From Candidatus Woesebacteria bacterium UBA1430 (GTDB lineage Bacteria; Patescibacteriota; Microgenomatia; UBA8517): 64,000 nucleotides of DNA. The position numbers and the translations under genes are program-made. Location of the stretch: contig DCTW01000004.1 of NCBI GenBank assembly GCA_002329465.1, positions 2,933 through 66,932 on the forward strand. The letters are read 5' to 3'. The notes beneath the pieces are model-generated. The model did not search any database. It saw only the letters and a program-made list of their open reading frames with translations, and was not told the DNA's origin. Below are positions 3,310 through 18,561 of this stretch, one piece after another. How positions within the stretch are numbered: the stretch's first letter is position 1; the number at the start of each line of letters is the position of its first letter.

Positions 3310-4214
3310 ACCCATTTATAATTTTCAAATATAAACTCAATAAGCTCCCTCGTTTCTCCAAATCTATCCTGGCTGCCCATCAGTGAAATCAATACACGCC
3401 TGCCGTCACGATTTACATAAGTAACCAAATTCTCCCTTGCATTCTCCGTCCACCCTGTTTTTACTCCCAACACACCATCTACCTCTCCAAGAAGCTCGTT
3501 CAAATTAGTAAGTCTATGCACTACGGTTCCATCAATACTTGTAACAGTCTTTGACTCCGTAGAAACTATTTCCGAAAAAATAGGATTATCAAGAGCAAAC
3601 TCCGTTAAAGTAACAAGGTCGCGTGCCGTAGAAAAGTGGTTAACCTCATCCAACCCCGAAGGATTTGAAAAATAAGTATTTTTAAGCCCCAAGGCTTTTG
3701 CTCGCCTATTCATTTCATAAACAAATCCGTCTCTCCCGTTTGGAAAATGGTTTGCCAACGCCTCGGCAGCATCATTGCCGGAAAAAATCAAAAGTCCATC
3801 CAAAAGATCCCGCACAGCAATCTCCTCTCCCGCAATAAGTCCCATTTTTTGGCCGGGAATATATTCTCCGTTTATTCTGACTCGCTCACCTGTTGAATAA
3901 TTCTCAATCGCAACCAAAGCAGTCATTATCTTAGTTGTAGAAGCCGGAAAAAAGGCTATATCGGAATTCTTTTCAAAAAGAGAAATTCTGGAATCAAGAT
4001 CAATCGCGTAAACCCCCCACGCAGAAAGTACAGGAAAAGATACTTTACCTTTAAGCGTTGGTATCGGGCTAAGGTCATATCTCGGTTCATAAACAATCTC
4101 CCGATTTAGACTTTTTGCAAACGAACTGCTCGAAAACGCAAACGAAGCCACAAATATAAAAGAGGCCATAGAAAAATACAAAAGTTTATTCTTTAAATAT
4201 TGAAAAAACGTCAT
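3276..4214 (-). CDS. D-alanyl-D-alanine carboxypeptidase (serine-type, PBP5-like)
   Basis: Signal/anchor sequence at the N-terminus. Penicillin-binding motifs are present: SxxK (ASTTKIMTA), SxN (FSGND) and KTG (VKTGWT). Confidence 0.8.
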   Translation of the reverse strand: MTFFQYLKNKLLYFSMASFIFVASFAFSSSSFAKSLNREIVYEPRYDLSPIPTLKGKVSFPVLSAWGVYAIDLDSRISLFEKNSDIAFFPASTTKIMTALVAIENYSTGERVRINGEYIPGQKMGLIAGEEIAVRDLLDGLLIFSGNDAAEALANHFPNGRDGFVYEMNRRAKALGLKNTYFSNPSGLDEVNHFSTARDLVTLTEFALDNPIFSEIVSTESKTVTSIDGTVVHRLTNLNELLGEVDGVLGVKTGWTENARENLVTYVNRDGRRVLISLMGSQDRFGETRELIEFIFENYKWVYPSAPASISP

Positions 4215-5620
4215 TTTTCGGATTTTACTTCTATACCCAACTCAGATAATTGCTTCTCGTCCGCACCGCTTGGAGCATCCATTACGGCGGTTTGTCCTCC
4301 AGATGTAGCCGGAAAAGCTATAACCTCCCTGATACTCGGTTCACCCAAAGCAACATAAATAAACCTATCAATCCCCGGAGCAATCCCGCCATGTGGAGGC
4401 ACGCCGTAAGTAAAAGCCGTCAGCATATGCTCAAACTGATCCCGCTGCTTCTTGCTAAATCCAATAAGTTCAAACACCTTTTCCTGAATCTTTGCATCAT
4501 GAATTCGCACACTTCCTCCCCCCACCTCAAAACCGTTCAAAATCATGTCATGCTGCAGCCCTCTTACTCTCATTGGATCTTTATCCAAAAGGGTAAAATC
4601 ATCAGGATGAGGCGCCGTAAACATGTGATGGCTTGGAGCAAAGCGCGCTTCACCCGATCCGTAGAAATAATCATCCTCACTCTGTTTCGCAAACAAAGGA
4701 AAATCAACTATCCAGGCAAAAGCCAGCTCATCTTTATCCTCTTTGTTTTTTCTCAAATCAGGTTTATCACTCCCGTATTTTTCAATAGCTTCTTTATGGG
4801 AAATTCTAGGCCAAGGAAATTGAGTAATTTTTTTATGAGGAAATATTTTCTTCACTAATTGAGTAAATAACTCCTCCGTTAATCTTAAAATATCCTCCTG
4901 TTTAACAAAACTCATTTCTATATCAAGCTGTGTAAATTCGCCATATGCGCGATCTGCCCTAGGATCTTCATCGCGAAAACAGCGCGCAATCTGAAAATAC
5001 TTTTCAAAACCAGCAATCATCAAAAGTTGTTTATATTGCTGAGGAGACTGGGGTAAAGCATAAAACTTTCCAGGCTGAAGCCTTGAGGGAACCAAAAAAT
5101 CCCTTGCCCCCTCCGGAGTTGTCTTTGTCAATATCGGCGTCTCAACCTCCACAAACTCCCTTTCATGCAGCCATTCACGGATAAATTGCACTGCCTTTGA
5201 CCGCACTCTAATATTCCGAGCCATTCTTGCTCTTCGAAGATCCAAATACCGGTACTTCATCCTCACGGATTCGTCAATTTCATATCCATCGGTTGTTAAA
5301 GGAATAGGTATCTCACCGGCAGGAGATAAAACATTAATTTCTTTAACCTCTATCTCGATATCTCCCGTCTCAAGATTCGGATTTATTAATTTCTCAGGCC
5401 GCTTTTTAACTAATCCAGTAATCTCAATAACGCTTTCAAGAGTAATCTTTTGACTAAAATCCTTAGGATCTAACACACACTGTACTACCCCGCTCATATC
5501 CCTTAGATCGATAAAAACCACGCGCTTATGCTCCCTTATCTTATCCACCCACCCCATAAGTAGAACTTTTTTATCTTTTTTCGAAACGCTTCTTTTTACA
5601 AGTATTCTCTGCATATTCAC
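4211..5620 (-). CDS. aspS: aspartyl-tRNA synthetase, bacterial-type core lacking the GAD insertion domain
   Basis: N-terminal OB fold (VLLMGWVDKIREHKRVVFIDLRD) and class II motifs (FRDEDPRADR, GGGSVRIH, GIAPGIDR). Only about 10 residues separate SDKPDLR from AFAWIVDFPLF, the position where bacterial AspRS carries the GAD domain. Confidence 0.9.
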   Translation of the reverse strand: MNMQRILVKRSVSKKDKKVLLMGWVDKIREHKRVVFIDLRDMSGVVQCVLDPKDFSQKITLESVIEITGLVKKRPEKLINPNLETGDIEIEVKEINVLSPAGEIPIPLTTDGYEIDESVRMKYRYLDLRRARMARNIRVRSKAVQFIREWLHEREFVEVETPILTKTTPEGARDFLVPSRLQPGKFYALPQSPQQYKQLLMIAGFEKYFQIARCFRDEDPRADRAYGEFTQLDIEMSFVKQEDILRLTEELFTQLVKKIFPHKKITQFPWPRISHKEAIEKYGSDKPDLRKNKEDKDELAFAWIVDFPLFAKQSEDDYFYGSGEARFAPSHHMFTAPHPDDFTLLDKDPMRVRGLQHDMILNGFEVGGGSVRIHDAKIQEKVFELIGFSKKQRDQFEHMLTAFTYGVPPHGGIAPGIDRFIYVALGEPSIREVIAFPATSGGQTAVMDAPSGADEKQLSELGIEVKSEK

Positions 5621-10125: not shown

Positions 10126-12246
10126 TCATTCATTAAGTGTGCTAAACTCATGGTATGCATCATAAACATAATTTTTGTTCTGGCTCATTACTTCAAAATA
10201 ATATTTAGTTCCCGGCTCAAGGCCGTCTATCTTAAACTCATGGCGCCGGGCTCGCTCCTGGGAAATCACGTCTTGCCCGTAAGACAAATCTCTGCCATAA
10301 TTGATCTTATTGTTTTTTGTATAATGATTCGTCTCCCAAGTGATAACCACATAATCACGGCCCACCTCGGCCACCTTTACGCTTGAAATGACAGTTGGAT
10401 CTTCATCAAAAAGAATCTCGGCAATAGATGAAATCTTAACCTGCTGTCTATAAACAAATTGCCCCGCCGAATCAACCATTGGACTAAAATAACCGACAAC
10501 TCCCCAGCCAGTACTTGCAATAAGATCTGTCGTTGAATTAAATACGGAAGCTATCGCAGTGCCCGACCTTCCAAGCGCATTATTAAACGCCAACATTGCC
10601 CTGCCAACGACTCCCGGAGCTTTTTGCGTCAAAGAATTATAAGTACCGGCTAGAGTCTGCCCCGTCGCACTAATCTGCCTGCCGACAAACGCAAGCGATC
10701 TTTCATTTGCCTCGTGGACAAATCCACTATACCCCTTCCAAACCTGGGCAATAAAAGTAATACCTGACTTTGTAGTACCGACAATTCTCCAGTACACTCT
10801 GTTTACAAAACCACCAAGTTTGGCTAAAAAACCTTCCCCATCTTCAATTTCTTCAGGAATAGAAACTACCAAATCCTCCGCCTCTTTCTCACTTATCTTC
10901 TCTTTCTCTTTCTCAATTCCAATATCGGCCGTATCTTCCTCCTCTTTTTCTATAATTTCTCTGATTTTTTCTTCACCGACAATTTCCAAATTAAAAAATA
11001 TTTCGCTGCCCATATTTCCCGCCGAATCTTTACCCTTCAGACTAATCCTATATTTTCCTCTTGCAAAGTTTTCAGCCGGAGAAAAAGAAAAATCAGAATA
11101 TTTTGCATAAAGCTGTTTGCCGTTATCAATTATCTCCTCGTGCGTCTCAAGCCAGAACGACTTTGGAGTCTTTATATTTACCAAACTATGAATCTCATAT
11201 AAACCCGAAAAATTCTGTTTCTCGATTTTTATCTCAATTTCATTAGGGCCGGAGGCAACTTTGTTTTCATCTTTGTCTCCCGCCAAGTAGTCAATCAATC
11301 TTCCGGAAATAACAGGTCTTACATCGGGTGTTGCCAAGTTCGACGTATAACTTTTCTGGTTTACATACAATTCACCAATCGTTGGGGCTGTTAAGTCCAC
11401 AAAAAGCGTTCTTGTCTCAACCCGCTCATTACCATTTGAATCCTTAGCCTTAACTTTCCAAATGCGTTTTCCCTCCTTAAGCTCCCCGTCATTATTTTCT
11501 TGTACCCACTCGCTCGAAGAATGCGTATAAACGCTTATATAATTATTGTCTGTATCACTATCGGAAAACCCGCTGTATTTTGCCGTATATTTGGCAGTAA
11601 CCCAATCCTCCGTTCTCTCTGCCGGAATATTAGCAATCGAAAAATCACCACTGTCGCCGTTATCAACCTCCAGGCTATAAGAAGCAATATTAGTTAGTTC
11701 ATCACTCGTCGTCTTCCATCTATAAGTAGGTCGAGTATTTGTAGTATAAGTATCTCCCCCGGGGCTATCTAGAGAAAATCCCAATGGGGCAACCGTATCA
11801 AGTGTTATGCTATTTGTGTTCACACCAGGTTCAGAAAAATCAATCCACCCCAAGTCTTGAGAGAAAACATAACCACTAAAAACACCGCTACTTATATTAG
11901 CAGACACATTGGAATTATAATTTGTAAAATCCAAAATCCCGCTCGTTGCGGAAATCTCAGCGCTCCCGCTAACAACTCCACTCGCTAAATCAATAGTCAC
12001 CCCGCTAAAATCCACCCAGCCGATATCTTCTAAGAACGCGTAGCCGGAAAAATTCCCACCCTCGTTATCAACAGTCACGTTTGAATTGTAATTAGTAAAA
12101 TCAAGAAAGCCGTCTGTATTTATCACTCTTGCACGCCCCTTTACAGAAACCGAAGCCGCTGAAACAAAACCTACACTAACCACAAAAATAACGATCTCTA
12201 TTACTAAAGCAGTTAAAACCTTTTTCATTGCAACAAATCTATCCAC
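10126..12246 (-). CDS. large secreted/surface protein with internal repeats and a C-terminal FN3-like domain
   Basis: N-terminal signal/anchor (VLTALVIEIVIFVVSVGFVSA). The module LDFTNYNSNV...FSGY.F..D.GW.DFS is duplicated. An acidic EKEEEDTADIGIEKEKEKISEKEAED linker is present. The C-terminal segment ITWETNHYTKNNKINYG...LEPGTKYYFEV is fibronectin-III-like. Confidence 0.65.
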   Translation of the reverse strand: MDRFVAMKKVLTALVIEIVIFVVSVGFVSAASVSVKGRARVINTDGFLDFTNYNSNVTVDNEGGNFSGYAFLEDIGWVDFSGVTIDLASGVVSGSAEISATSGILDFTNYNSNVSANISSGVFSGYVFSQDLGWIDFSEPGVNTNSITLDTVAPLGFSLDSPGGDTYTTNTRPTYRWKTTSDELTNIASYSLEVDNGDSGDFSIANIPAERTEDWVTAKYTAKYSGFSDSDTDNNYISVYTHSSSEWVQENNDGELKEGKRIWKVKAKDSNGNERVETRTLFVDLTAPTIGELYVNQKSYTSNLATPDVRPVISGRLIDYLAGDKDENKVASGPNEIEIKIEKQNFSGLYEIHSLVNIKTPKSFWLETHEEIIDNGKQLYAKYSDFSFSPAENFARGKYRISLKGKDSAGNMGSEIFFNLEIVGEEKIREIIEKEEEDTADIGIEKEKEKISEKEAEDLVVSIPEEIEDGEGFLAKLGGFVNRVYWRIVGTTKSGITFIAQVWKGYSGFVHEANERSLAFVGRQISATGQTLAGTYNSLTQKAPGVVGRAMLAFNNALGRSGTAIASVFNSTTDLIASTGWGVVGYFSPMVDSAGQFVYRQQVKISSIAEILFDEDPTVISSVKVAEVGRDYVVITWETNHYTKNNKINYGRDLSYGQDVISQERARRHEFKIDGLEPGTKYYFEVMSQNKNYVYDAYHEFSTLNE

Positions 12247-12341
12247 CGTTCATCTCTTTACCATAACACATAATTTTACCCTTTTACAAATTATGTATAT
12301 ATTGATCCTTGAAAATAATTAACCAAAAAGTAAAATGAATT

Positions 12342-12656
12342 ATGGCAATAACAGATAAGGACATAAAAAAACTTAAAACCATTTTTGCTACTAAAGATGA
12401 TCTAAAAAGATTTGCTACTAAAGATGATCTAAAAAGATTTGCTACTAAAGATGATCTTGAAGACATAAAAGAAGAAATCAGACAAGAATTTCAGTTCTGG
12501 AGAAGCGAATTTTACGACAGAATTGATCCCATACTCAAAGAAGTCCAAGCAAGCCGAGAGGAACGAGTAATAATAAACCATCGTCTAGAAAAACACGACA
12601 ATATGCTTAAAAACCATCAAATACGTCTTCATCGCCTCGAGACGTCAAAGCCATAA
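12342..12656 (+). CDS. small coiled-coil protein with FATKDDLKR tandem repeats
   Basis: 104-aa ORF. The 27-bp unit repeated about 2.8 times encodes FATKDDLKR-FATKDDLKR-FATKDDLED, and the rest is heptad-like. No family assigned. Confidence 0.5.
   Translation: MAITDKDIKKLKTIFATKDDLKRFATKDDLKRFATKDDLEDIKEEIRQEFQFWRSEFYDRIDPILKEVQASREERVIINHRLEKHDNMLKNHQIRLHRLETSKP
12384..12460 (+). repeat. 27-bp in-frame tandem repeat, about 2.8 copies (tttgctactaaagatgatctaaaaaga)
   Basis: Copies at 12384-12410 and 12411-12437 are identical. The third copy (12438-12457) is identical for 20 nt and then diverges. Confidence 0.95.
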
Positions 12657-12687
12657 GTCAAAAATGTCAATAACCACTCCAGTAAAT

Positions 12688-12912
12688 ACACACACTACCA
12701 CAAACGAGTATATTTACAATGCCCAAGTTGTGCTGGCTGCTTGTCTTGCCTGCCTCCGACATAAAAGAACCACCATCAACGCTCTCGTCGAATTTAAACT
12801 AAATCTTGAAAGCAACTTGCTCACACTTTGACCGGCTTCCTGCTCCTGAAGAAATAGGTAAATGCTTAGTGGCTAATTAAGGTAGGCTCGTAACCAAGTT
12901 TCTAAAACATAA
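12688..12912 (+). pseudogene. decayed DGR copy: RT 5' stub fused to Avd 3' stub (about 1.3 kb internal deletion)
   Basis: 12688-12730 (acacacactaccacaaacgagtatatttacaATGcccaagttg) parallels 14745-14787 upstream of and into the intact RT. A shifted frame reads ACLRHKRTTINALVEFKLNLESNLL, compared with RT SCRKRKRNTINALKFEQNLEKNLV, and then hits a stop at 12829-12831. 12843-12912 parallels the last ~70 nt of avd (ggctcgtaaccaagtttctaaaaca is identical) but carries indels and an in-frame TAG. Confidence 0.75.
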
Positions 12913-12970
12913 GTCTCGGCGAACGCAACATGCATAGCGGCTCCCTGAATCCTTAGTATTGTTGTTCGTG
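12912..12970 (-). repeat. truncated template-repeat remnant (TR') of the decayed DGR
   Basis: It occupies the same position relative to the avd stop as the intact TR. On the minus strand it reads NNNTKDSGSRYACCVRRD with AAC/AAT-rich codons, against NNNTKDSASRYARCIRRD in the intact TR. It breaks off after 59 nt into spacer-homologous sequence. Confidence 0.7.
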
Positions 12971-12976
12971 AAAGCG

Positions 12977-13099
12977 AAACAGACTAATTTTTAAAAACTA
13001 TCTTCATCTCCCATTACCCCATTAGATAATACTCAAAACAAGATCAAATCTATCATTCAAGTACTATCTAACGGGGTTGAAAAGATAAAATCTTAGGCT
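12977..13099. repeat. copy of the DGR spacer element with an expanded hairpin
   Basis: 12977-13015 is identical (39/39) to 16485-16523, and 13073-13099 is identical (27/27) to 16532-16558. Between the cccc/gggg arms this copy carries 52 nt (13021-13072) where the intact locus has ttt. The insert has its own imperfect inverted arms, attagataatac and gtactatctaac. Confidence 0.85.
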
Positions 13100-13142
13100 T
13101 TTTCAGTGTAGCATATAAAACAACTGATTGGTATAATTTAAT

Positions 13143-13394
13143 ATGCTGCAAAAAATCATTAAACAAAAACCTTACTTGGCCTGGGATATCAAAAATGCGG
13201 GTAATTTATCTGACGAAAGCTCACTGGAGCACATCTTGGCTTATGGCGACTGGGACGATATTCAAGAGGCAGAAAAACTCATTGGGATTTCTGAAATGAA
13301 GAGTTTATTTGAAAAACTTATCCAGAAAAAGAGAAAAAACCTTAAACCGCGTACGATCTTATATTTTCAAAATTACTTTGCCAAATATGCATGA
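13143..13394 (+). CDS. small protein upstream of and overlapping the nucleotidyltransferase gene (putative cognate partner/antitoxin)
   Basis: 83-aa ORF whose stop overlaps the downstream ATG (ATGCATGA, 8-nt overlap). A TATAAT sits at 13132-13137. Function is inferred only from the operon context. Confidence 0.45.
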   Translation: MLQKIIKQKPYLAWDIKNAGNLSDESSLEHILAYGDWDDIQEAEKLIGISEMKSLFEKLIQKKRKNLKPRTILYFQNYFAKYA

Positions 13395-14004
13395 ATCTGT
13401 TTTATCAGATCAACAAAAAAAACTTCTGTCTTTAATTCGTAAATTTTCACCTGAATTTGGTTTGGTTGGAGGAACTGCAATTGCACTTCAAATCGGACAT
13501 AGAAAATCTATAGATTTTGATCTAGCTAAAACTGGCGAAATTAAAAACGACACAATAGCTGATACCATCCGCCAGTTTACACCAATAGAGCACACGCTGA
13601 TCGATGAACCAAACGAACTTACAGTTGTTGCCAACTCTGTTAAGCTGACTTTCTTCAAATATCCCTTTAAAATCAAATTTCAAAAACAGTTTAAACAATA
13701 TATTTCTATGCCGGATTTACTTACGCTTGGTTCCATGAAAGCGTACGCCTTAGGCAGGAGGGCAAAATGGAAAGATTATGTTGATTTATTTTTTATTTTG
13801 AAAAAGTATTCGTTATCAGATTTAGTTAAAAACACTAAAAATATTTTTAAAAACGAGTTTAATGAAAAATTTTTTAGAGAACAGCTTTCTTATTTCAAAG
13901 ATATAGATTACTCAGAACAGATTGATTATGTACAGGGTTATAAAGTAGAGAACAACCTTATTAAAAATAATCTAACTCATTTAAGTCTTCAAAAAACTCT
14001 ATAA
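13387..14004 (+). CDS. nucleotidyltransferase, AbiEii/AbiGii-toxin-like (DUF1814-type)
   Basis: The start is taken at the internal ATG 13387 (MHESVLSDQQKK...), because the ORF-track start at 13309 lies inside the upstream gene. The NTase motif GGTAIALQIGHRKSIDFDL (G-[GS]...DxD) and the overall size and pattern resemble short AbiEii-family proteins. Confidence 0.65.
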   Translation: MHESVLSDQQKKLLSLIRKFSPEFGLVGGTAIALQIGHRKSIDFDLAKTGEIKNDTIADTIRQFTPIEHTLIDEPNELTVVANSVKLTFFKYPFKIKFQKQFKQYISMPDLLTLGSMKAYALGRRAKWKDYVDLFFILKKYSLSDLVKNTKNIFKNEFNEKFFREQLSYFKDIDYSEQIDYVQGYKVENNLIKNNLTHLSLQKTL

Positions 14005-14009
14005 TTTAT

Positions 14010-14269
14010 CTAATAAACATCCTCATGTTTACCGATATGATAGATAAACTATTTCACGCTTAAACACGAGCAGAATTCGGATGCTTCTGTCTACAGATAT
14101 CGACCAGTATTCCTCGCCCCCCAGCTTGTGAAGCCTCAGAAACGGATGTTTGGGATTTTTAGTTATAAGATCAAGCTGCTTAATAACTTTCTTCTTTAAT
14201 GAAGTATTGCCTTTAGTGATTTTTACAAACTCTCGTTCAAAACTTTCTGTAAGCCGTAACTTAATGCAT
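14010..14269 (-). pseudogene. RelE/ParE-superfamily toxin, apparently disrupted by two frameshifts
   Basis: Not in the ORF track. The ATG at 14269-14267 is followed by CAT TAA. One nt out of frame it reads IKLRLTESFEREFVKITKGNTSLKKKVIKQLDLITKNPKHPFLRLHKLGGEEYWSISVDRSIRILLVFKREIVYLSYR, with a stop at 14031-14029. A third frame continues with the family-typical ending YHIGKHEDVY and a stop at 14012-14010. It lies directly downstream of the RHH antitoxin gene. Confidence 0.55.
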
Positions 14270-14271
14270 GC

Positions 14272-14538
14272 TTATCTCTCTAGAAGGTACTCTTTCAACT
14301 CTTTGATGTTTGTAAATTCGACGTATTTTTTTTCTTTGATTTCGCGTTTGGCATTATCCAAAAGCACCCCGTCTCTTGAAATAGAAGAAATAGCCTCAGA
14401 ACGAGAAAAATAGGTCGCCAATAGCATGCGGATAAAATCCTGCAGGGAAATACCAATTCTATCGGCTTCTTTTGCACTATTTTGCAATATACCCTCAGGG
14501 AGATTTATCTTTACTGTTGTTGAGCTTGGTTTACTCAT
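14272..14538 (-). CDS. ribbon-helix-helix type antitoxin
   Basis: 88-aa ORF. The N-terminal segment VKINLPEGILQNSAKEADRIGISLQDFIRMLLATYF follows a beta-strand/helix/helix pattern typical of RHH (RelB/DinJ/CopG-like) antitoxins. It lies immediately 5' of the RelE-like reading frame. Confidence 0.6.
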   Translation of the reverse strand: MSKPSSTTVKINLPEGILQNSAKEADRIGISLQDFIRMLLATYFSRSEAISSISRDGVLLDNAKREIKEKKYVEFTNIKELKEYLLER

Positions 14539-14617
14539 AGTACCAATATGGTACTAGTTGATACCATTGTCAAGTAACAAAGATATTGTGGGAAATACTA
14601 AATTTTAAATTACTCCC

Positions 14618-14634
14618 GTCCGCCTCTGGCGGAC
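14618..14634. other. GC-rich hairpin (gtccgcc-tct-ggcggac) just 3' of the VR' stub
   Basis: Perfect 7-bp stem with a 3-nt loop. In minus-strand sense it lies 12 nt after the stop codon of the remnant target gene. Confidence 0.6.
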
Positions 14635-14677
14635 AAATTCTATTTTAGTCTCGGCGAACGCAACACGCGTAACGACC
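14635..14677 (-). pseudogene. 3'-terminal stub of a deleted second DGR target gene (VR' remnant)
   Basis: 14635-14658 (aaattctattttagtctcggcgaa) is identical to 16600-16623 at the end of the intact target. The minus strand reads ...RYACCVRRD*, against RYARCIRRD* in the intact target. 14647-14665 is identical to TR' 12912-12930, not to the intact TR. Confidence 0.7.
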
Positions 14678-14729
14678 AATATTTTTGTTACAATAAATAA
14701 AATGCAAACACACTCGGGTAAGGAATATC

Positions 14730-14752
14730 CACACACACACACACACACACAC
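14730..14752. repeat. (CA)11 dinucleotide microsatellite in the RT leader
   Basis: Direct reading gives c-acacacacac-acacacacac-ac, ending 24 nt upstream of the RT ATG. The decayed copy has only (CA)3 at the homologous place (12688-12695). Confidence 0.95.
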
Positions 14753-14775
14753 TACCACAAACCAGCATATTTACA

Positions 14776-15900
14776 ATGCCCAAGTTGCTCTCTGCCTATA
14801 TCTCCTGCAGAAAGCGCAAACGAAACACCATAAATGCTCTTAAATTCGAACAAAACCTGGAAAAAAATTTAGTCGAACTTCAGCAAAAGCTTATAAATAA
14901 AACCTACTGTCCCAGTACTTCAATCTGCTTTGCCGTGACCAAGCCCAAGCTACGGGAAATCTTTGCCGCTGATTTTACGGACAGAGTTGTCCATCACCTC
15001 CTGGTAAAAGAAATAGAAGACTATTTTGAACGCCGATTTATTTACCACTCCTATGCTTGTCGAACAAAAAAGGGTACTCACTTAGCAGCAAAAAACCTAC
15101 AAAGGGCTATATTGAAAGTTACTCGTAACCAAACACAGCCTGCATATTTTGGTCAGTTTGACGTTAAAAGCTTTTTCACCTCCATCGATAAACCTATCTT
15201 ATTTAATATGCTTTCCCAAGAAATTCAAAAAATGAAAAAGCAAAAGCTTTGGCAACAAGAAATAAATTATTTGCTTCAAACCATTATTTTTCATAACCCA
15301 GCCGATAACTACAAAACGAAGGGGAATCTAAACCTATTTGATCGCATTCCCCCGCACAAATCTCTTTTCTATGCCGATAAGACCAAAGGTCTGCCCATCG
15401 GCAACTTAACATCACAGTTTTTCGCCAATGTCTATCTTAACCATCTCGATCAGTACATCAAGCACAAATTAAAAGTAAAGTTTTACTTGAGATACGCCGA
15501 TGACTTTGTGGTTTTATGCCAAGATAAATCTCAAATTTATAAATGGCGCGAGCAGATTAATTTCTTTTTACAAGAAAAGCTAAAACTAAAACTTCACCCA
15601 CAAAAGGATAAATACGGCTCCGTTTACCAAGGTATCGATTTTGTCGGCTATTTTGTAAAACCGGATTATATGCTTTGTCGCAAACGAATTGTCAACGCCT
15701 TGAAACAAAAGCTCTATTATTTCAATCAGAACGAAAATGCCGACCCCAAAATCATGATACAAACAGTCAACTCATATTTCGGCCATTTTAGACAAGGCGA
15801 TTGCTTCCAGCTCCGACAAAATATCTACCATCGCCGTGCCCAGAAACTAAAAAAATACGCCAAGCCAGCGCCTAAATATACCCATCTGACACTTCGGTGA
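14776..15900 (+). CDS. DGR reverse transcriptase
   Basis: 374 aa. RT motifs are present, including the DGR-typical IGxxxSQ (LPIGNLTSQFFANVYL) and the YADD catalytic box (LRYADDFVVL). It sits adjacent to an Avd-like gene and a TR/VR pair. Confidence 0.92.
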   Translation: MPKLLSAYISCRKRKRNTINALKFEQNLEKNLVELQQKLINKTYCPSTSICFAVTKPKLREIFAADFTDRVVHHLLVKEIEDYFERRFIYHSYACRTKKGTHLAAKNLQRAILKVTRNQTQPAYFGQFDVKSFFTSIDKPILFNMLSQEIQKMKKQKLWQQEINYLLQTIIFHNPADNYKTKGNLNLFDRIPPHKSLFYADKTKGLPIGNLTSQFFANVYLNHLDQYIKHKLKVKFYLRYADDFVVLCQDKSQIYKWREQINFFLQEKLKLKLHPQKDKYGSVYQGIDFVGYFVKPDYMLCRKRIVNALKQKLYYFNQNENADPKIMIQTVNSYFGHFRQGDCFQLRQNIYHRRAQKLKKYAKPAPKYTHLTLR

Positions 15901-16262
15901 ACAAAATCTCAAACCTACCGCTCTATCTAAAACTTTACAAACTTATTTTGTATTTGTATCAGTTAACAGGCAATCTTCCACGCACTTATAAATACACCCT
16001 CGGACAGAATATTCTGGATTTGGCCTGGCAAACTCTAGACCATATAATTTTAGCCAATAGCCTGCCTAACAACAAAAAGACAACGCAGATCATCAAAGCC
16101 TCAGCCAACTTTGACCAGCTAAAAACCCGCCTTCGCATGGCACACGAGCTTAAGCTTATTTCCCATAAACAACAAGCCCGCCTAATCGTCCAGAATGAAG
16201 AGATTGGTAAAATGCTCTCCGGCTGGCTAAGGTGGGCTCGTAACCAAGTTTCTAAAACATGA
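15897..16262 (+). CDS. avd: DGR accessory variability determinant (Avd-like four-helix-bundle protein)
   Basis: 121-aa basic helical protein that overlaps the RT stop by 4 nt. Its size, position and sequence pattern (LPRTYKYTLGQNILDLAWQTLDHIILAN) resemble the four-helix-bundle/Avd family. Confidence 0.8.
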   Translation: MNKISNLPLYLKLYKLILYLYQLTGNLPRTYKYTLGQNILDLAWQTLDHIILANSLPNNKKTTQIIKASANFDQLKTRLRMAHELKLISHKQQARLIVQNEEIGKMLSGWLRWARNQVSKT

Positions 16263-16400
16263 GTCTCGGCGAATACATCGAGCATACCTGGAGGCCGAAT
16301 CCTTAGTGTTGTTGTTCGTGTTGCCGTTGTTCAGGTTCACGTTCCAGGCATTGCTCTGGCTATTATAGTTCTCCGTACTGGACCAATGGTTGGCAGCATC
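16262..16400 (-). repeat. DGR template repeat (TR); adenine-bearing strand is the minus strand
   Basis: 139 nt align without gaps to 16612-16750. All 15 mismatches are at plus-strand T (minus-strand A) of this copy. On the minus strand it reads DAANHWSSTENYNSQSNAWNVNLNNGNTNNNTKDSASRYARCIRRD, with 12 AAY codons. Confidence 0.92.
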
Positions 16401-16427
16401 TTTTCACCAACTTCTTCTCTAATCTAC

Positions 16428-16457
16428 AACAAGCTGGTTTTTACAAAAAAGCTTGTT
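16428..16457 (+). terminator. hairpin (aacaagct-N14-agcttgtt) followed by tggtttt; possible RT-avd terminator
   Basis: Perfect 8-bp inverted repeat read directly from the sequence. A T-rich tract follows it on the plus strand. It lies 28 nt beyond the TR. Confidence 0.35.
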
Positions 16458-16484
16458 TGGTTTTAATGCCTTTAAGGCGTGGTA

Positions 16485-16558
16485 AAACAGACTAATTTTT
16501 AAAAACTATCTTCATCTCCCATTGCCCCTTTGGGGTTGAAAAGATAAAATCTTAGGCT
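16485..16558. repeat. conserved DGR spacer element with cccc-ttt-gggg hairpin
   Basis: Two blocks (39 nt and 27 nt) are identical to the decayed copy at 12977-13015 and 13073-13099. The hairpin is at 16525-16535. Confidence 0.85.
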
Positions 16559-16577
16559 ACTTCTAGCATAGCGTCAA
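16549..16577 (-). promoter_or_regulatory. candidate sigma70-like promoter for a minus-strand TR transcript
   Basis: Minus strand reads TTGACG (16577-16572), a 17-nt spacer, then TAAGAT (16554-16549). Based on hexamer match only. Confidence 0.25.
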
Positions 16578-16609
16578 AATTATAAAAAATAAATAGTTTA
16601 AATTCTATT

Positions 16610-17644
16610 TTAGTCTCGGCGAATACATCGAGCATACCTGGAGGCCGAATCCTTAGTGCTGATGATCGTGTAGCCGTAGATCAGGTCCACGCTCCAGGCA
16701 TAGCTCTGGCTAAAAAAGTACTCCGTACTGGACCAATGGCTGGCAGCAACATTGGGTAAATTGTTAGCCGCACCATTAATATACGCCTGCATCAGCTCTT
16801 TTTGGGTAGGCAGCCTCCAGTCTGTTTTGACACCACTGCCGTCGTCAAGAGAAAGGTTTAAGCAAAACTCAGCGGCCGAAACATCATCATCCTCCACATA
16901 GGCATTAAGTGGATCCTGATTATCACAGTACTGGTTTGCAGTTCCCAGCGAGTTAAAATTACACGACTCGACCCCCACACCCGGATCTACGCGATCAGCA
17001 CCGTTTACATATTTAAATTCGTTATCTACTTGCTCATTAGTTCTATCAGTCCAATAAAGCTTTGTCCAATTGTCTTGGTAAACCTTATTTGAAAGCAAAG
17101 ATACAGTAACCTCGGGAACACCCCCAGTCACACTGGCTGGAGTGCCCCCCGGGTCTGACACCAGAGTCCAAACCCCCTCCTCATCAATATACTCATAGTC
17201 ACCGCTGTCAATAGCACATGTTCCCTCTGCTTCCTGATTATTATTCGAACACCTATAATCATCATAAGCAATATTTGCCTGAAGCTCAAACATCGTACCC
17301 GTCTTAATAGTTCTATCCCCATTCCCCGCATAAAAAGTAAACCCGCTGGGAACATCACCGGCTGTCGCCGAGCCGTCCGGCTCCCAGGCAGCCGCCTCCA
17401 TTATTCTATTCCAATATGTTCCCCAATTATTAGTCGTACTATCCCAATCCGCTGCATCAGTCACACCATAGTTATCTCCCTTACCGACCAAAAAATCGTA
17501 AGCCTGTTTCAATCTGGAATCGGCTCCCGAAAAAACACCGCCATCCGGCCTTTCCTCGTCAGCAAAGACGCTCCAACGAGCCTGATAAAGCCCGAATATA
17601 CCCAAACTTAAACAAGCCAACAAAAAAAGAAATCTTCTTATCAT
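16610..17644 (-). CDS. secreted DGR target protein with C-terminal DUF1566/C-type-lectin-fold-like variable domain
   Basis: N-terminal signal/anchor (MIRRFLFLLACLSLGIFGLYQARWSVFA). The C-terminal segment WRLPTQKELMQAY...HWSST...AW.V......RYARCIRRD resembles DUF1566 (Lcl C-terminal-like) DGR targets. The VR occupies the last 46 codons. Confidence 0.88.
   Translation of the reverse strand: MIRRFLFLLACLSLGIFGLYQARWSVFADEERPDGGVFSGADSRLKQAYDFLVGKGDNYGVTDAADWDSTTNNWGTYWNRIMEAAAWEPDGSATAGDVPSGFTFYAGNGDRTIKTGTMFELQANIAYDDYRCSNNNQEAEGTCAIDSGDYEYIDEEGVWTLVSDPGGTPASVTGGVPEVTVSLLSNKVYQDNWTKLYWTDRTNEQVDNEFKYVNGADRVDPGVGVESCNFNSLGTANQYCDNQDPLNAYVEDDDVSAAEFCLNLSLDDGSGVKTDWRLPTQKELMQAYINGAANNLPNVAASHWSSTEYFFSQSYAWSVDLIYGYTIISTKDSASRYARCIRRD
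16612..16750 (-). repeat. DGR variable repeat (VR) at the 3' end of the target gene
   Basis: Counterpart of the TR. It encodes VAASHWSSTEYFFSQSYAWSVDLIYGYTIISTKDSASRYARCIRRD. 14 codons differ from the TR, each through A-position changes. Confidence 0.92.
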
Positions 17645-17676
17645 AGCTTCACTTTACAAAATCCCAATAGCAAAAG

Positions 17677-18561
17677 TCAACTTTGCTTCCTGAAACCCTT
17701 CCTTTTTCTAACAAGAAGAATAACTACCAAGATAGGAAGCCAAATAACGCCATAAACCCCAATCCAAATAAGTCCCTTACCGACTCCGATCAAACTTTTA
17801 ACTAGACTTCTCACCGCAAGCTTAAAGACAACGTTCGGCCTAAATTTATCGTCAGGTGTATATGGAAGCGAAAGCTCATCGGTTGATAAGTACAAAGTAA
17901 TCTTGGTTAACTCCACATTCTTTTCAATCGCCTCTTTCTGGCCGATCAACGCATCAATCTGATACTGCAAATTAGTAAGCTCCCTCGTTACCTGCAAAAT
18001 ATCATCTACTTCGCTTGCCTGATCCTGTATCTCTTCAAACTTAGCTTTCGTCTTTTCAAGCGTTTCCAATCTCTCTTCAATATTTACATACTCCTCAGTA
18101 ACATCCTCACCCATAAGCATTTCGTTAGTAACCTTTATCGAAAGGGATCGGAAATAAGCCATAGCCTCATCAAATCTCGATTTCGGCACCCGCACAGTAA
18201 TGGTCGCAAAAGCCGATTCATCCGGCCTGCTATAGCTCGAGCTTACCATAAAGCCGCCGATATTTTTTGCATAAGAAACCGCCTTGTCTCCAGCCTCACG
18301 CACATTACTTACAAGAAGAGACATACTAGAATTCTGAATAACCATTCCGCTCTCGGCGCTTGGCATTTTAATAAAATTATCAGAGGTAGAAGCAGTATCT
18401 CTCAAAGCTACTCCTCCCGATTCAGGCAAATAGCTACCGGCAAGTCCAAAGCTCTGCTTATTATACAAAAAGGGTCTAACCGATTTTGAGTACAAAAAAT
18501 ATGAAACAATAAGAAGAATTAAAAAACTCAAAACTTTATTTCTTTTGATCCAGTCAACCAT
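17677..18561 (-). CDS. DUF4349-like membrane protein
   Basis: N-terminal TM helix, a central coiled coil (EEYVNIEERLETLEKTKAKFEEIQDQ) and a C-terminal TM pair (GLIWIGVYGVIWLPILVVILLV). The architecture is typical of DUF4349. Confidence 0.55.
   Translation of the reverse strand: MVDWIKRNKVLSFLILLIVSYFLYSKSVRPFLYNKQSFGLAGSYLPESGGVALRDTASTSDNFIKMPSAESGMVIQNSSMSLLVSNVREAGDKAVSYAKNIGGFMVSSSYSRPDESAFATITVRVPKSRFDEAMAYFRSLSIKVTNEMLMGEDVTEEYVNIEERLETLEKTKAKFEEIQDQASEVDDILQVTRELTNLQYQIDALIGQKEAIEKNVELTKITLYLSTDELSLPYTPDDKFRPNVVFKLAVRSLVKSLIGVGKGLIWIGVYGVIWLPILVVILLVRKRKGFRKQS

Follow-up and report, generated by a model that had tools for sequence, protein, structure and literature searches.

DGRs are especially common in Patescibacteria with small genomes. 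To our knowledge, everything that is known about the mechanism of the DGR RNA comes from a single phage element, in which the spacer follows the template. The element described here lies in a stretch of 64,000 nt from Candidatus Woesebacteria bacterium UBA1430 (contig DCTW01000004.1, hereafter the window). Its template repeat (TR) is located on the strand opposite the reverse transcriptase (RT) gene and ends on the stop codon of avd. This layout raises the question which RNA accompanies a TR that is read against the RT operon, and how cDNA synthesis on such an RNA could be positioned.

Organization of the element

The element comprises the following genes and repeats (positions in the window):

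14776..15900, plus strand, DGR reverse transcriptase gene (374 aa; RVT_1 at 2e-17)
15897..16262, plus strand, avd, accessory variability determinant (121 aa; bAvd PF22296 at 6e-21, residues 12-112)
16262..16403, minus strand (sense), TR, rich in AAC codons and mismatched to the variable repeat at minus-strand adenines
16612..16753, minus strand, variable repeat (VR), the repeat of the TR at the 3' end of the target gene
16610..17644, minus strand, target gene (344 aa; C-terminal Lcl_C/DUF1566 domain, Lcl_C at 1e-12)

The RT carries the marks of the DGR clade, an intact YxDD box (YADD) and an [ILV]GxxxSQ motif (IGNLTSQ), both invariant across an alignment of 33 sequences, and thousands of homologs are present in Patescibacteria. 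The bAvd domain identifies the DGR accessory gene; the C-terminal tail of this protein past GW.xW differs among relatives. The target protein begins with a hydrophobic segment, and the VR is located at the 3' end of its Lcl_C/DUF1566 ORF, with variation in codon positions 1 and 2.

TR and VR form a direct repeat, 350 bp apart and 89% identical. All 16 mismatches in the 142-nt BLAST alignment fall on minus-strand adenines of the TR, and within 16262-16399 each of the 15 differences is a T on the plus strand of the TR (A on the minus strand). The exchanges are confined to TR adenines, as is characteristic of DGRs. Read in the target frame, 15 of the 16 affect the first or second base of their codon, and AAC/AAT codons account for 12 of the 16; translation of the TR in this frame gives ...NVNLNNGNTNNNTK... 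The initial annotation had assigned the mutable adenines to the minus strand, i.e. to the sense of the target gene and opposite to RT and avd, and every difference fits this assignment. The template RNA must be minus-sense and is therefore antisense to RT-avd, a claim of the same annotation that the adenine positions support.

The alignment also confirmed that the homology stops at 16262, where the avd TGA has its last base; on the VR side it ends at 16612, inside the target TAA. Over the 3'-terminal 47 nt of the repeat (16262-16308), TR and VR do not differ. The VR is followed by a weak AT-rich hairpin (-2.4 kcal/mol). A search for a conserved hairpin downstream of the VR, which could correspond to the IMH-associated repeat, gave hairpins that were weak and not consistent. 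According to the relevant passages of Wu et al. 2018 (PMC5758913), a GC-rich inverted repeat after the IMH is found in only 34% of DGRs.

Taken as a whole, the locus is probably an intact Patescibacteria-type DGR composed of two convergent units, RT-avd on the plus strand and a template cassette on the minus strand.

Inverted layout among relatives

With TR and VR on the strand of the target gene and opposite to the RT, the element corresponds to the inverted DGRs as they are defined in the relevant section of PMC3521204. We gathered relatives by an alignment-based metagenome scan; a single-protein scan of genome contigs yielded only two loci, both distant and canonical. TR and VR lie opposite the RT in 15 of the 57 related loci that have a TR/VR pair, and the inverted layout is thus a trait of the lineage. 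In a neighbor-joining (NJ) tree of the RTs without support values, the inverted loci stand apart from the canonical same-strand ones, two same-strand loci (L008 and L009) nest among the inverted ones, and types B and C form one clade. In most close homologs (L084-L091), avd is flipped. The only near-identical relative (L003, RT 90% identical) has a sequence that ends within the TR.

The inverted layout itself is already known (Schillinger 2012, Wu 2018), as the initial annotation had pointed out; the passages concerned are those on Group 4 in PMC3521204 and on inverted elements in PMC5758913. [quoted passage not shown] The published elements are gammaproteobacterial (Shewanella, Vibrio, Photobacterium) or appear only in supplementary tables, whereas the window element keeps avd together with the RT and falls in an RT clade of Patescibacteria. 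The layout by itself answers nothing new. Concrete handles come from a conserved leader upstream of the TR, which shows covarying pairing with the TR 3' boundary.

A structured leader RNA upstream of the TR

Covariation analysis and structure prediction of the minus-strand RNA, which had been proposed as a check, revealed a conserved four-helix leader and a long-range pairing. The leader has these parts:

16397..16554, minus strand, structured leader RNA directly 5' of the TR (about 158 nt; RNAalifold consensus)
16548-16537 with 16521-16511, minus strand, leader helix P1
16487-16480 with 16409-16402, minus strand, leader helix P2, enclosing P3 and P4
16478-16475 with 16471-16468, minus strand, leader helix P3
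16456-16444 with 16436-16424, minus strand, leader helix P4

The RNAalifold consensus of nine loci contains 37 pairs in the four helices, and 27 of them show compensatory changes. In these nine loci 92.6% of the leader cells are paired, against 34-50% when the partners are slid, and none of 500 shuffles reached the observed values. The consensus fold is more stable in the minus sense than in the plus sense (-30.5 versus -23.8 kcal/mol). An early candidate, a pairing of the TR 5' end with the adjacent upstream sequence (AAGTTGG/CCAAC), was replaced by the better-supported helix P2.

A covariance model of the leader, to which the window sequence scores 117.7 bits, locates it right next to the 5' end of the TR, on the strand of the TR, whether the locus is same-strand, avd-flipped or RT-flipped, and the leader was directly upstream of the TR in every architecture found. 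One locus (L088) has a leader but has lost its TR, and was left out of the analysis. Searches of Rfam 15 returned no family at E<=5 for the active cassette (about 14600-17650) and none at E<=1 for the leaders of five relatives; within 12000-18000 of the window there were three matches only, all of them in a decayed copy of the cassette and far below the gathering scores.

Judging from the sequence, transcription of the template RNA most likely begins in the 210-nt spacer between VR and TR, at its far end, in agreement with the initial annotation, which had placed the start in this spacer. The corresponding feature is:

16549..16577, minus strand, candidate promoter region of the leader-TR transcript (a pattern match)

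This region holds the proposed TTGACG-N17-TAAGAT (16577-16549) and an alternative -10 element, TATGCT (16570-16565). Relatives carry TTGACA-N17/18-TAGTAT 10-16 nt upstream of the leader; the window candidate is weaker than these promoters and ambiguous in position. The proposed promoter is thus present, but patterns of this kind are not enriched (6 versus 3.4 +/- 2.1 in shuffles), and its -10 hexamer coincides with the conserved first bases of the leader, which in relatives fall downstream of the TTGACA-N17/18-TAGTAT-type promoters. In the predicted fold, transcription from TAAGAT would cut helix P1 short. Scans for sigma-70 promoters and for terminators gave nothing beyond the shuffled expectation.

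Predicted pairing across the TR

Two further segments complete the predicted structure:

16488..16508, minus strand, E, single-stranded leader segment between P1 and P2, which pairs with F
16246..16267, minus strand, F, the last 5-6 nt of the TR, forming its 3' boundary, and 16 nt of 3' flank; complementary to E

F consists of the last TR bases, the avd stop and the last five avd codons, read antisense. Cognate E:F duplexes have energies of -14 to -28 kcal/mol (z of -2.5 to -4.9 against shuffles), and duplexes formed across non-cognate sequence classes are much weaker. The pairing covaries across at least six sequence classes, L092 being a further one. The duplex of the window (-14.1 kcal/mol; z of -2.5 to -3.0) is AU-rich and the weakest of the set, being matched by 4-8 of 300-500 shuffles. 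In the full-length fold of the window RNA, it comprises two helical segments with pair probabilities of 0.87 or more, separated by a three-base internal loop with values of 0.23-0.34. Unconstrained folds of the RNAs of about 340 nt formed E:F in full in eight of nine loci and in part in the ninth (L087, 9 of 18 E bases). E favours the TR flank over the VR flank by 3-18 kcal/mol. The complementarity was not significant in the distant loci L018, L022, L026 and L055, where the model alignment of E is less reliable.

E:F includes the last bases of the TR, and the 3' end of E faces the interior of the TR, which is a primer-like polarity. By analogy with the TR:Sp duplex of Bordetella, E:F may position the 3' end of the TR for cDNA initiation, the pairing strand being supplied from upstream of the TR and not from a downstream spacer. 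The explanation of the locus that we favour, and hold to be the probable one, builds on this analogy with a single characterised system. The minus-strand template cassette would be made up of a promoter, located where the spacer between VR and TR is farthest from the TR, the leader (16554-16397), the TR (16403-16262) and F, which runs 16 nt into antisense avd. Pairing of E (16508-16488) with F (16267-16246) would close the TR into a loop of about 230 nt and set the 3' end of E on the last TR bases, in the geometry of the BPP-1 template:primer duplex. RT-Avd would bind this leader-TR-F RNA, adenine-mutagenic cDNA synthesis would begin near G16267, just within the TR 3' end, and its product would then replace the VR.

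Leader and pairing could also be real and E:F serve another purpose, either as a closing helix that resembles the avd:Sp duplex of Bordetella (cPRT Stop) or as a processing or stability element that sets where the TR RNA ends on its 3' side, with priming elsewhere or in trans. Bordetella does have a second long-range duplex, which is essential and joins sequences on either side of the TR, and duplexes of this kind have been predicted in 207 of 278 DGRs. E:F is also longer (18-20 bp) than the 10-pair template:primer duplex of Bordetella, and a helix at the 3' end of the RNA could shield it from exonucleases. However, the primer-like polarity of E, with the last TR bases included in the duplex, speaks against such a role. 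Moreover, the Bordetella stop duplex is located at the 5' side of the TR and E:F at the 3' side, while the 5' side of the TR is closed by P2, the more natural counterpart of a stop element. We regard this alternative as unlikely.

The junction of avd and TR

In L004, L005 and L092 the avd stop is followed by the TR at a distance of 0-2 nt, and in L007 TR and avd overlap by 12 nt; in type C relatives the TR overlaps the start of avd and not its end. The tight junction, which had been called unusual, is thus normal in this lineage. The position of F shows that it travels with the TR and not with avd, since it lies outside avd in L006, about 70 nt past the stop, and at the avd start in type C loci. 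Conservation of the TR 3' flank in relatives extends over about 16 nt only. Farther out, the flank consists of either avd or RT sequence, each of them sense in some loci and antisense in others, and we found no motif common to the TR 3' flanks across all architectures. A recurring AAAGCCCAA beside the TR in L004-L007 was considered as a feature of the Avd tail; this reading was rejected because the sequence is outside avd in L006 and its complement sits in the leader.

Close homologs lacking the junction had been named as an argument against a constraint on it. In part they do argue this way: the junction as such is not conserved, since avd is flipped in most close homologs (L084-L091) and F is displaced in L006. 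The E:F complementarity, however, is conserved, and constraint on the avd-3'/TR junction at the nucleotide level is supported.

These observations bear on the model of the initial annotation, in which a long antisense avd segment is the counterpart of the Bordetella spacer, the sense/antisense overlap is regulatory and the RT-avd mRNA terminates at the plus-strand hairpin at 16428-16457. The abutment of TR and avd stop in the window and in L004, L005 and L092, together with the overlap in L007, would suit this model, as would the nearly identical junction block in the decayed copy and a weak minus-strand terminator-like site past avd (15871-15857). This last site, however, is within chance expectation, the TR 3' flanks share no sequence past about 16 nt, the closest members of the clade are mostly avd-flipped, and F is separate from avd in L006. 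Only about 16 nt of avd (the part of F at 16246-16261) are used, and the conserved structure is located 5' of the TR. The hairpin at 16428-16457 does exist, but it is the reverse complement of leader helix P4 and was not called by the terminator scan. Because P4 is kept, with compensatory changes, irrespective of how RT or avd is oriented in a relative, and also in relatives where RT-avd termination at this place is impossible, the hairpin provides no evidence for termination of the RT-avd mRNA. We therefore consider a long antisense-avd spacer improbable.

It is very improbable that the junction and the E/F inverted repeat play no role in the template RNA, the abutment being due to genome compaction and the repeat having its function in the plus strand or in the DNA itself (such as that of a terminator or stabiliser of the RT-avd mRNA, or of a recombination site): the genomes are compact, their genes often touch or overlap their neighbours (type C loci have 36 nt common to RT and avd), and any RNA helix can form on the complementary strand, where the duplex is only moderately weaker, but E:F and leader are fixed relative to the sense strand of the TR whatever the orientation of RT and avd, G-U pairs stabilise the minus sense (E:F is more stable in this sense in six of seven loci, as is the leader consensus), and complementarity has been kept through at least six sequences, for which compaction alone offers no explanation.

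Comparison with known DGR RNAs

The DGR RNA of BPP-1 has the order avd 3' end, TR, Sp (PMC6182149; bioRxiv 10.1101/2023.10.23.563531), and its template:primer duplex is formed by TR117-129 and Sp47-56 (bioRxiv 10.1101/2023.10.23.563531). The RNA predicted here would be similar in several respects: an essential non-coding RNA flanks the BPP-1 TR, the 3' end of which is paired with a remote segment of the RNA and the other end of which is closed by a further helix, and the avd coding region contributes about 20 nt to the RNA. In silico, the window has a duplex of the TR 3' end with a distal strand whose 3' end faces the TR interior. It has no structured spacer 3' of the TR that could provide the priming strand, the flank there being conserved for those 16 nt or so. 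BPP-1 has a structured Sp of 140 nt 3' of the TR and a sense avd piece 5' of it, whereas the window has a structured RNA of about 158 nt 5' of the TR and an antisense avd piece 3' of it. Since the structured RNA and the avd piece swap sides of the TR, the order of the parts is permuted relative to BPP-1. No sequence or Rfam similarity was seen between the BPP-1 RNA and the window leader.

Rfam contains the structured RNAs RT-1 to RT-19, which are found by bacterial RT genes and include the BPP-1 spacer (RT-10); some of these motifs have been proposed as DGR components (Weinberg et al. 2017, PMC5737381). Their covariance models matched neither the window nor the leaders of five relatives. In the passages of PMC3521204 and PMC5758913 retrieved by term searches (including section 22 of the latter), no leader RNA or E:F pairing is described. 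The same parts of Wu et al. [quoted passage not shown] This CPR-specific arrangement resembles the window in having avd on the strand opposite the TR; as drawn there, however, TR and RT share a strand and avd is reversed, while in the window it is TR and target that are reversed, RT and avd being on one strand.

Implications

A large Patescibacteria DGR clade may use a permuted RNA, with the binding and priming RNA upstream and paired across the TR to its 3' boundary; this generalization is tentative, and the odds lean somewhat against it. If it were true, promoter, leader, TR and F would form a portable cassette, able to function in both orientations with respect to RT and avd. This would explain the repeated flips of RT and avd in the lineage and the constraint that the antisense strand imposes on a few terminal avd codons.

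The defined RNA of about 340 nt (16560-16222, minus strand) provides a handle for reconstitution with RT-Avd, and the E:F and leader pairs are specific handles for mutation and restoration. The leader covariance model can be used to annotate TRs and their strand even without an assembled VR. The leader also cautions against surveys that seek DGR RNA elements only downstream of the TR; one published survey of such elements gives, in the passage on its search range, 40 nt upstream and 100 nt downstream as the sequence examined.

A decayed second copy

The window contains remnants of a further cassette:

12664..13105, no strand assigned, decayed cassette copy (repeat families D2, D5, D6 and D9)

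What is left are a 5' stub of the RT, the 3' end of avd together with F' and a stub of TR' (12860-12970), and a minus-strand remnant of the leader (12961-13095) that matches the covariance model at E=1e-6. The sequence 12860-12970 shows an 80% match with 16210-16320. That the avd 3' end is kept in this copy, hinting at a constraint, had been noted before and holds: the block 12886-12922 differs from 16236-16272 at a single position, the middle base of the stop codon.

Organization of the DGR and sense of its template

The window contains a complete DGR, with the following components:

14776-15900, plus strand: RT ORF (RVT_1 match, 2e-17)
15897-16262, plus strand: avd ORF (bAvd match, 6e-21)
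16262-16403, sense strand minus: template repeat (TR), first copy of a 142-nt direct repeat
16612-16753, minus strand: variable repeat (VR), second copy of this repeat
16610-17644, minus strand: target ORF, 344 aa, with a C-terminal Lcl_C/DUF1566 domain (Lcl_C, 1e-12)

The two repeat copies are 89% identical, and all mismatches correspond to a plus-strand T in the TR (15/15 within 16262-16399, 16/16 over the BLAST alignment). The minus-strand translation of the TR in the target frame is ...AWNVNLNNGNTNNNTKDSASRYARCIRRD; 15 of the 16 differences affect codon position 1 or 2, and 12 fall in AAC or AAT codons. Because of this mismatch pattern and the minus-strand reading in the target frame, 16262-16403 was assigned as TR with minus as its sense strand, which is the strand of the target and opposite to RT and avd. 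TR/VR identity ends at 16262, the final base of the avd TGA, and on the VR side at 16612, within the target TAA. Gene calls, repeat ends and mismatch strand thus agree with the initial annotation, which had described an inverted TR abutting the avd stop codon. Its core inference of a template RNA antisense to RT-avd is also right, though already known for DGRs.

Distribution of the inverted layout

Schillinger et al. 2012 (PMC3521204) describe 'inverted' DGRs, in which TR, VR and target share a strand opposite to that of the RT, and conclude that RT mRNA and template RNA are not necessarily a single transcript. The same conclusion appears in Wu et al. 2018 (PMC5758913), who list many CPR-specific arrangements. 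Inverted cases are termed rare by myDGR; in general, the layout is not unusual.

The window RT has thousands of homologs in Patescibacteria. We retrieved 80 metagenome loci and scanned them with a custom script for repeats with adenine-biased mismatches; related loci carry handles such as L003. TR and VR both lie opposite to the RT strand in 15 of the 57 loci with a TR/VR pair, and within this RT family the inverted layout is a lineage trait. Placing avd by an iterated HMM yielded four layouts:

Type A (canonical): target-avd-TR-RT on a single strand
Type B (window layout): RT and avd share a strand, with TR and target opposite (L003, L004, L005, L006, L007/L019, L092)
Type C: gene order of type B with avd flipped; target-TR-avd on one strand, converging on RT (L012, L024, L084-L091)
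Type D: target-avd-TR, converging on RT

A neighbor-joining tree of the RTs, built without support values, unites types B and C in a single clade, within which C branches among B; the sister of this clade is type D, and type A is separate.

Among type B loci, the TR lies 0 nt (L004, L005), 2 nt (L092) or ~90 nt (L006) past the avd stop, or overlaps avd by 12 nt (L007/L019). In type C, the 3' end of the TR touches or overlaps the avd start; in type D, it faces the RT 3' end; in type A, the TR ends 20-40 nt before the RT start or within it. Tight junctions are therefore normal in the lineage, with a variable partner gene. Close homologs thus lack the avd-3'/TR junction in part, which the initial annotation had named as counting against its idea.

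A structured leader RNA upstream of the TR

Compared in minus-strand reading, the VR-TR spacers from nine loci of types B and C share the start (A/U)AGAUUUU, followed by several helices. RNAalifold arranged these as P1, then P2 enclosing P3 and P4, with compensatory changes in 28 of 50 pairs. Shifting partners by 1-3 columns lowers the share of paired cells in an alignment restricted to this leader from 92.6% to 34-50%; in this alignment, 27 of 37 pairs are altered on both sides, and none of 500 shuffles equaled the observed values. These alignments show a leader with conserved structure and covariation. Its consensus fold energy is -30.5 kcal/mol in the minus sense versus -23.8 kcal/mol in the plus sense. 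The window has these elements, where E and F denote segments that can pair over a long range:

16554-16397, minus strand: leader
16456-16444 with 16436-16424, minus strand: helix P4
16508-16488, minus strand: E, UAGUUUUUAAAAAUUAGUCUG
16267-16246, minus strand: F, GAGACUCAUGUUUUAGAAACUU

P4 is the reverse complement of a plus-strand hairpin that the initial annotation had read as suggesting an RT-avd mRNA running across the TR; belonging to the leader on the opposite strand, it does not serve as evidence for a terminator.

R1, a covariance model built from the leader (162 positions, 37 pairs), matched every training locus as well as L092, L089, L090, L088 and a decayed copy in the window (12961-13095, E=1e-6), with partial matches in L005 and L003. 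Weaker matches were found in types A and D (L018, L009, L030/31, L020/21, L022/42, L026, L055, L066, L079). In every locus with a detected TR/VR pair, the best match lies on the same strand as the TR and stops at its 5' end (at most ~40 nt off, in L020); a small number of other matches (E > 0.1) fall elsewhere and are chance-like. A further layout occurs in L015 (1250-2039): RT on the plus strand, a minus-strand TR and leader (the latter at 1477-1641) and a plus-strand avd past the leader, with no VR on the contig.

Leaders from the window and five relatives matched no Rfam 15 family, RT-1 to RT-19 included; RT-10 is the Bordetella spacer (Weinberg et al. 2017, PMC5737381). The screen of Handa et al. 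was limited to 40 nt on the upstream side of the TR and 100 nt on the downstream side. To the extent that Rfam and the searchable literature show, the conserved leader 5' of the TR is new, together with its covarying clamp at the 3' boundary of the TR.

Long-range pairing of the leader with the TR 3' boundary

E is an unpaired leader segment between P1 and P2. The complementary F comprises the last 5-16 nt of the TR and the following 5-18 nt; in the window, it covers the end of the TR, the avd stop and codons 117-121 of avd in antisense. The predicted energy of the cognate duplex is -14.1 kcal/mol for the window and lies between -18 and -28 kcal/mol for relatives; z-scores against dinucleotide shuffles are -2.5 to -4.9. 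E:F sequences differ between groups, namely the window, L004/L006/L007 (AGCCCAA...), L084-L090 (GGGCAUAAAG...), L012, L024 and L092 (GGCUUCAUUAUCAGUCC), and non-cognate duplexes between groups are far weaker than cognate ones. As judged from these comparisons, E:F is a covarying 18-20-bp helix across ~230 nt. Unconstrained MFE folds of ~340-nt RNAs recovered most of it in 8 of 9 loci and half in L087 (9/18 E bases). Pair probabilities in the window are 0.87-0.99 in two helical segments and 0.23-0.34 at a three-base internal loop. E favors the TR flank over the VR flank by 3-18 kcal/mol.

In 6 of 7 loci, the minus sense gives the more stable duplex. A role of the module on the plus strand or at the DNA level is unlikely, since its position relative to the TR sense strand stays fixed when RT and avd change orientation, and G-U pairs favor the minus sense.

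F lies outside avd in L006 and within the avd 5' region in type C; it is therefore part of the TR cassette, and in type B the variable Avd tail merely accommodates it. The Avd match to Pfam stops at residue 112 of 121, and tail length varies among relatives. The decayed copy has kept E' and, with one change at an unpaired position, F', which explains the identity at its avd 3' end pointed out in the initial annotation. The suggestion made there that antisense avd replaces the Bordetella spacer fails beyond 16 nt: the conserved RNA is the 5' leader, and F resides in the TR cassette.

Comparison with the Bordetella phage DGR

In the Bordetella phage BPP-1 DGR, the spacer RNA (Sp) 3' of the TR pairs with TR117-129 to form a template:primer duplex, and an avd segment on the 5' side of the TR takes part in a second duplex; Sp A56 acts as primer and TR G117 as first template base (bioRxiv 10.1101/2023.10.23.563531). 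E:F resembles this geometry, as it sits on the TR 3' end with the E 3' end facing the TR interior, and the next template base would be G16267. P2 closes the TR 5' end (16409-16402) in the window clade. Unlike in Bordetella, RNA upstream of the TR supplies both partner strands. The leader may thus be a functional counterpart of the Bordetella spacer in permuted order, with E:F positioning the initiation site, and we infer that RT-Avd would bind there and prime. The main alternative is that E:F acts as a closing, stop-type or stabilizing helix and that priming occurs elsewhere.

Transcription of the leader and TR

L084, L086 and L087 carry TTGACA-N17/18-TAGTAT (or TATTAT), whose -10 hexamer ends 10-16 nt before the first leader base, and L006 has TATAAT at the corresponding place. 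Judging by these promoter-like motifs, the leader-TR unit appears to be independently transcribed. The TAAGAT (16554-16549) initially proposed as -10 hexamer coincides with the conserved first bases of the leader, and a start 7 nt downstream would cut away half of P1. By position, TATGCT (16570-16565) is a better candidate, though without a good -35; promoter-like patterns in this AT-rich stretch of the window do not exceed chance expectation. A minus-strand start near 16555-16575 is likely, and read-through from the target gene is a possible source of leader-TR RNA.

In type C loci L084-L087 and L089-L091, RT and avd converge with 3' ends overlapping by 36 nt (e.g. L084 4424-4459). Leader, TR and avd form a single minus-strand unit there, so that the TR RNA would be the 5' UTR of the avd mRNA. 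In L088 (3925-4334), no TR separates the leader (4177-4334, 102 bits) from a truncated avd (83 aa), and the two abut directly; this element, with a serine recombinase gene upstream of its RT, appears degenerate.

A decayed cassette and the neighborhood of the DGR

Remains of a second DGR cassette precede the active one:

12664-13105: decayed cassette
12664-12831: RT 5' stub, 55-aa ORF
12860-12970: avd 3' end with TR' stub
12961-13095: leader remnant

An insertion of ~45 nt in the inner P1 hairpin of the leader remnant lengthens the stem (CCCC...GGGG) and does not break it. L003, with an RT 90% identical to that of the window, begins with the same remnant, which hence predates their split. Some 100 nt before the RT start lies an orphan VR 3' end with downstream flank (14635-14671), which shares 84% identity with 16600-16636 and 70% with the TR' stub (12900-12936); it looks like a remnant of the lost target gene of the decayed cassette. 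A (CA)n microsatellite of ~11 units (14735-14757) lies ~20 nt upstream of the RT start codon, with only ~4 units at the matching position of the decayed copy (12688-12695); slippage could alter the RT upstream region.

Toxin-antitoxin-like genes lie between the decayed cassette and the active RT (13143-14538), namely an 83-aa ORF, an AbiEii-type nucleotidyltransferase (13393-14004, 5e-8) and a CopG-antitoxin-like ORF (14272-14538, minus strand; 1e-4, under the Pfam cut-off). L003 has the same arrangement. Three 27-nt tandem repeats (12384-12464, two identical) encode FATKDDLKR repeats in a 104-aa ORF (12342-12656) without Pfam match.

The sequence (U)AGAAUUU is common to 16598-16611 and the VR 3' flanks of L004, L084, L086 and L087, at most ~15 nt downstream of the VR or target stop and with weak AT-rich hairpins only; it may be a homing-site or terminator element.

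Upstream of the DGR, 10126-12246 (minus strand) encodes a surface-type protein of 706 aa that carries Big_13, fn3 and Pur_ac_phosph_N domains. In type C loci L085, L086 and L087, the upstream region encodes a homologous Big_13/Pur_ac_phosph_N surface protein on the opposite strand, and this shared position indicates a syntenic chromosomal locus, not a mobile element.
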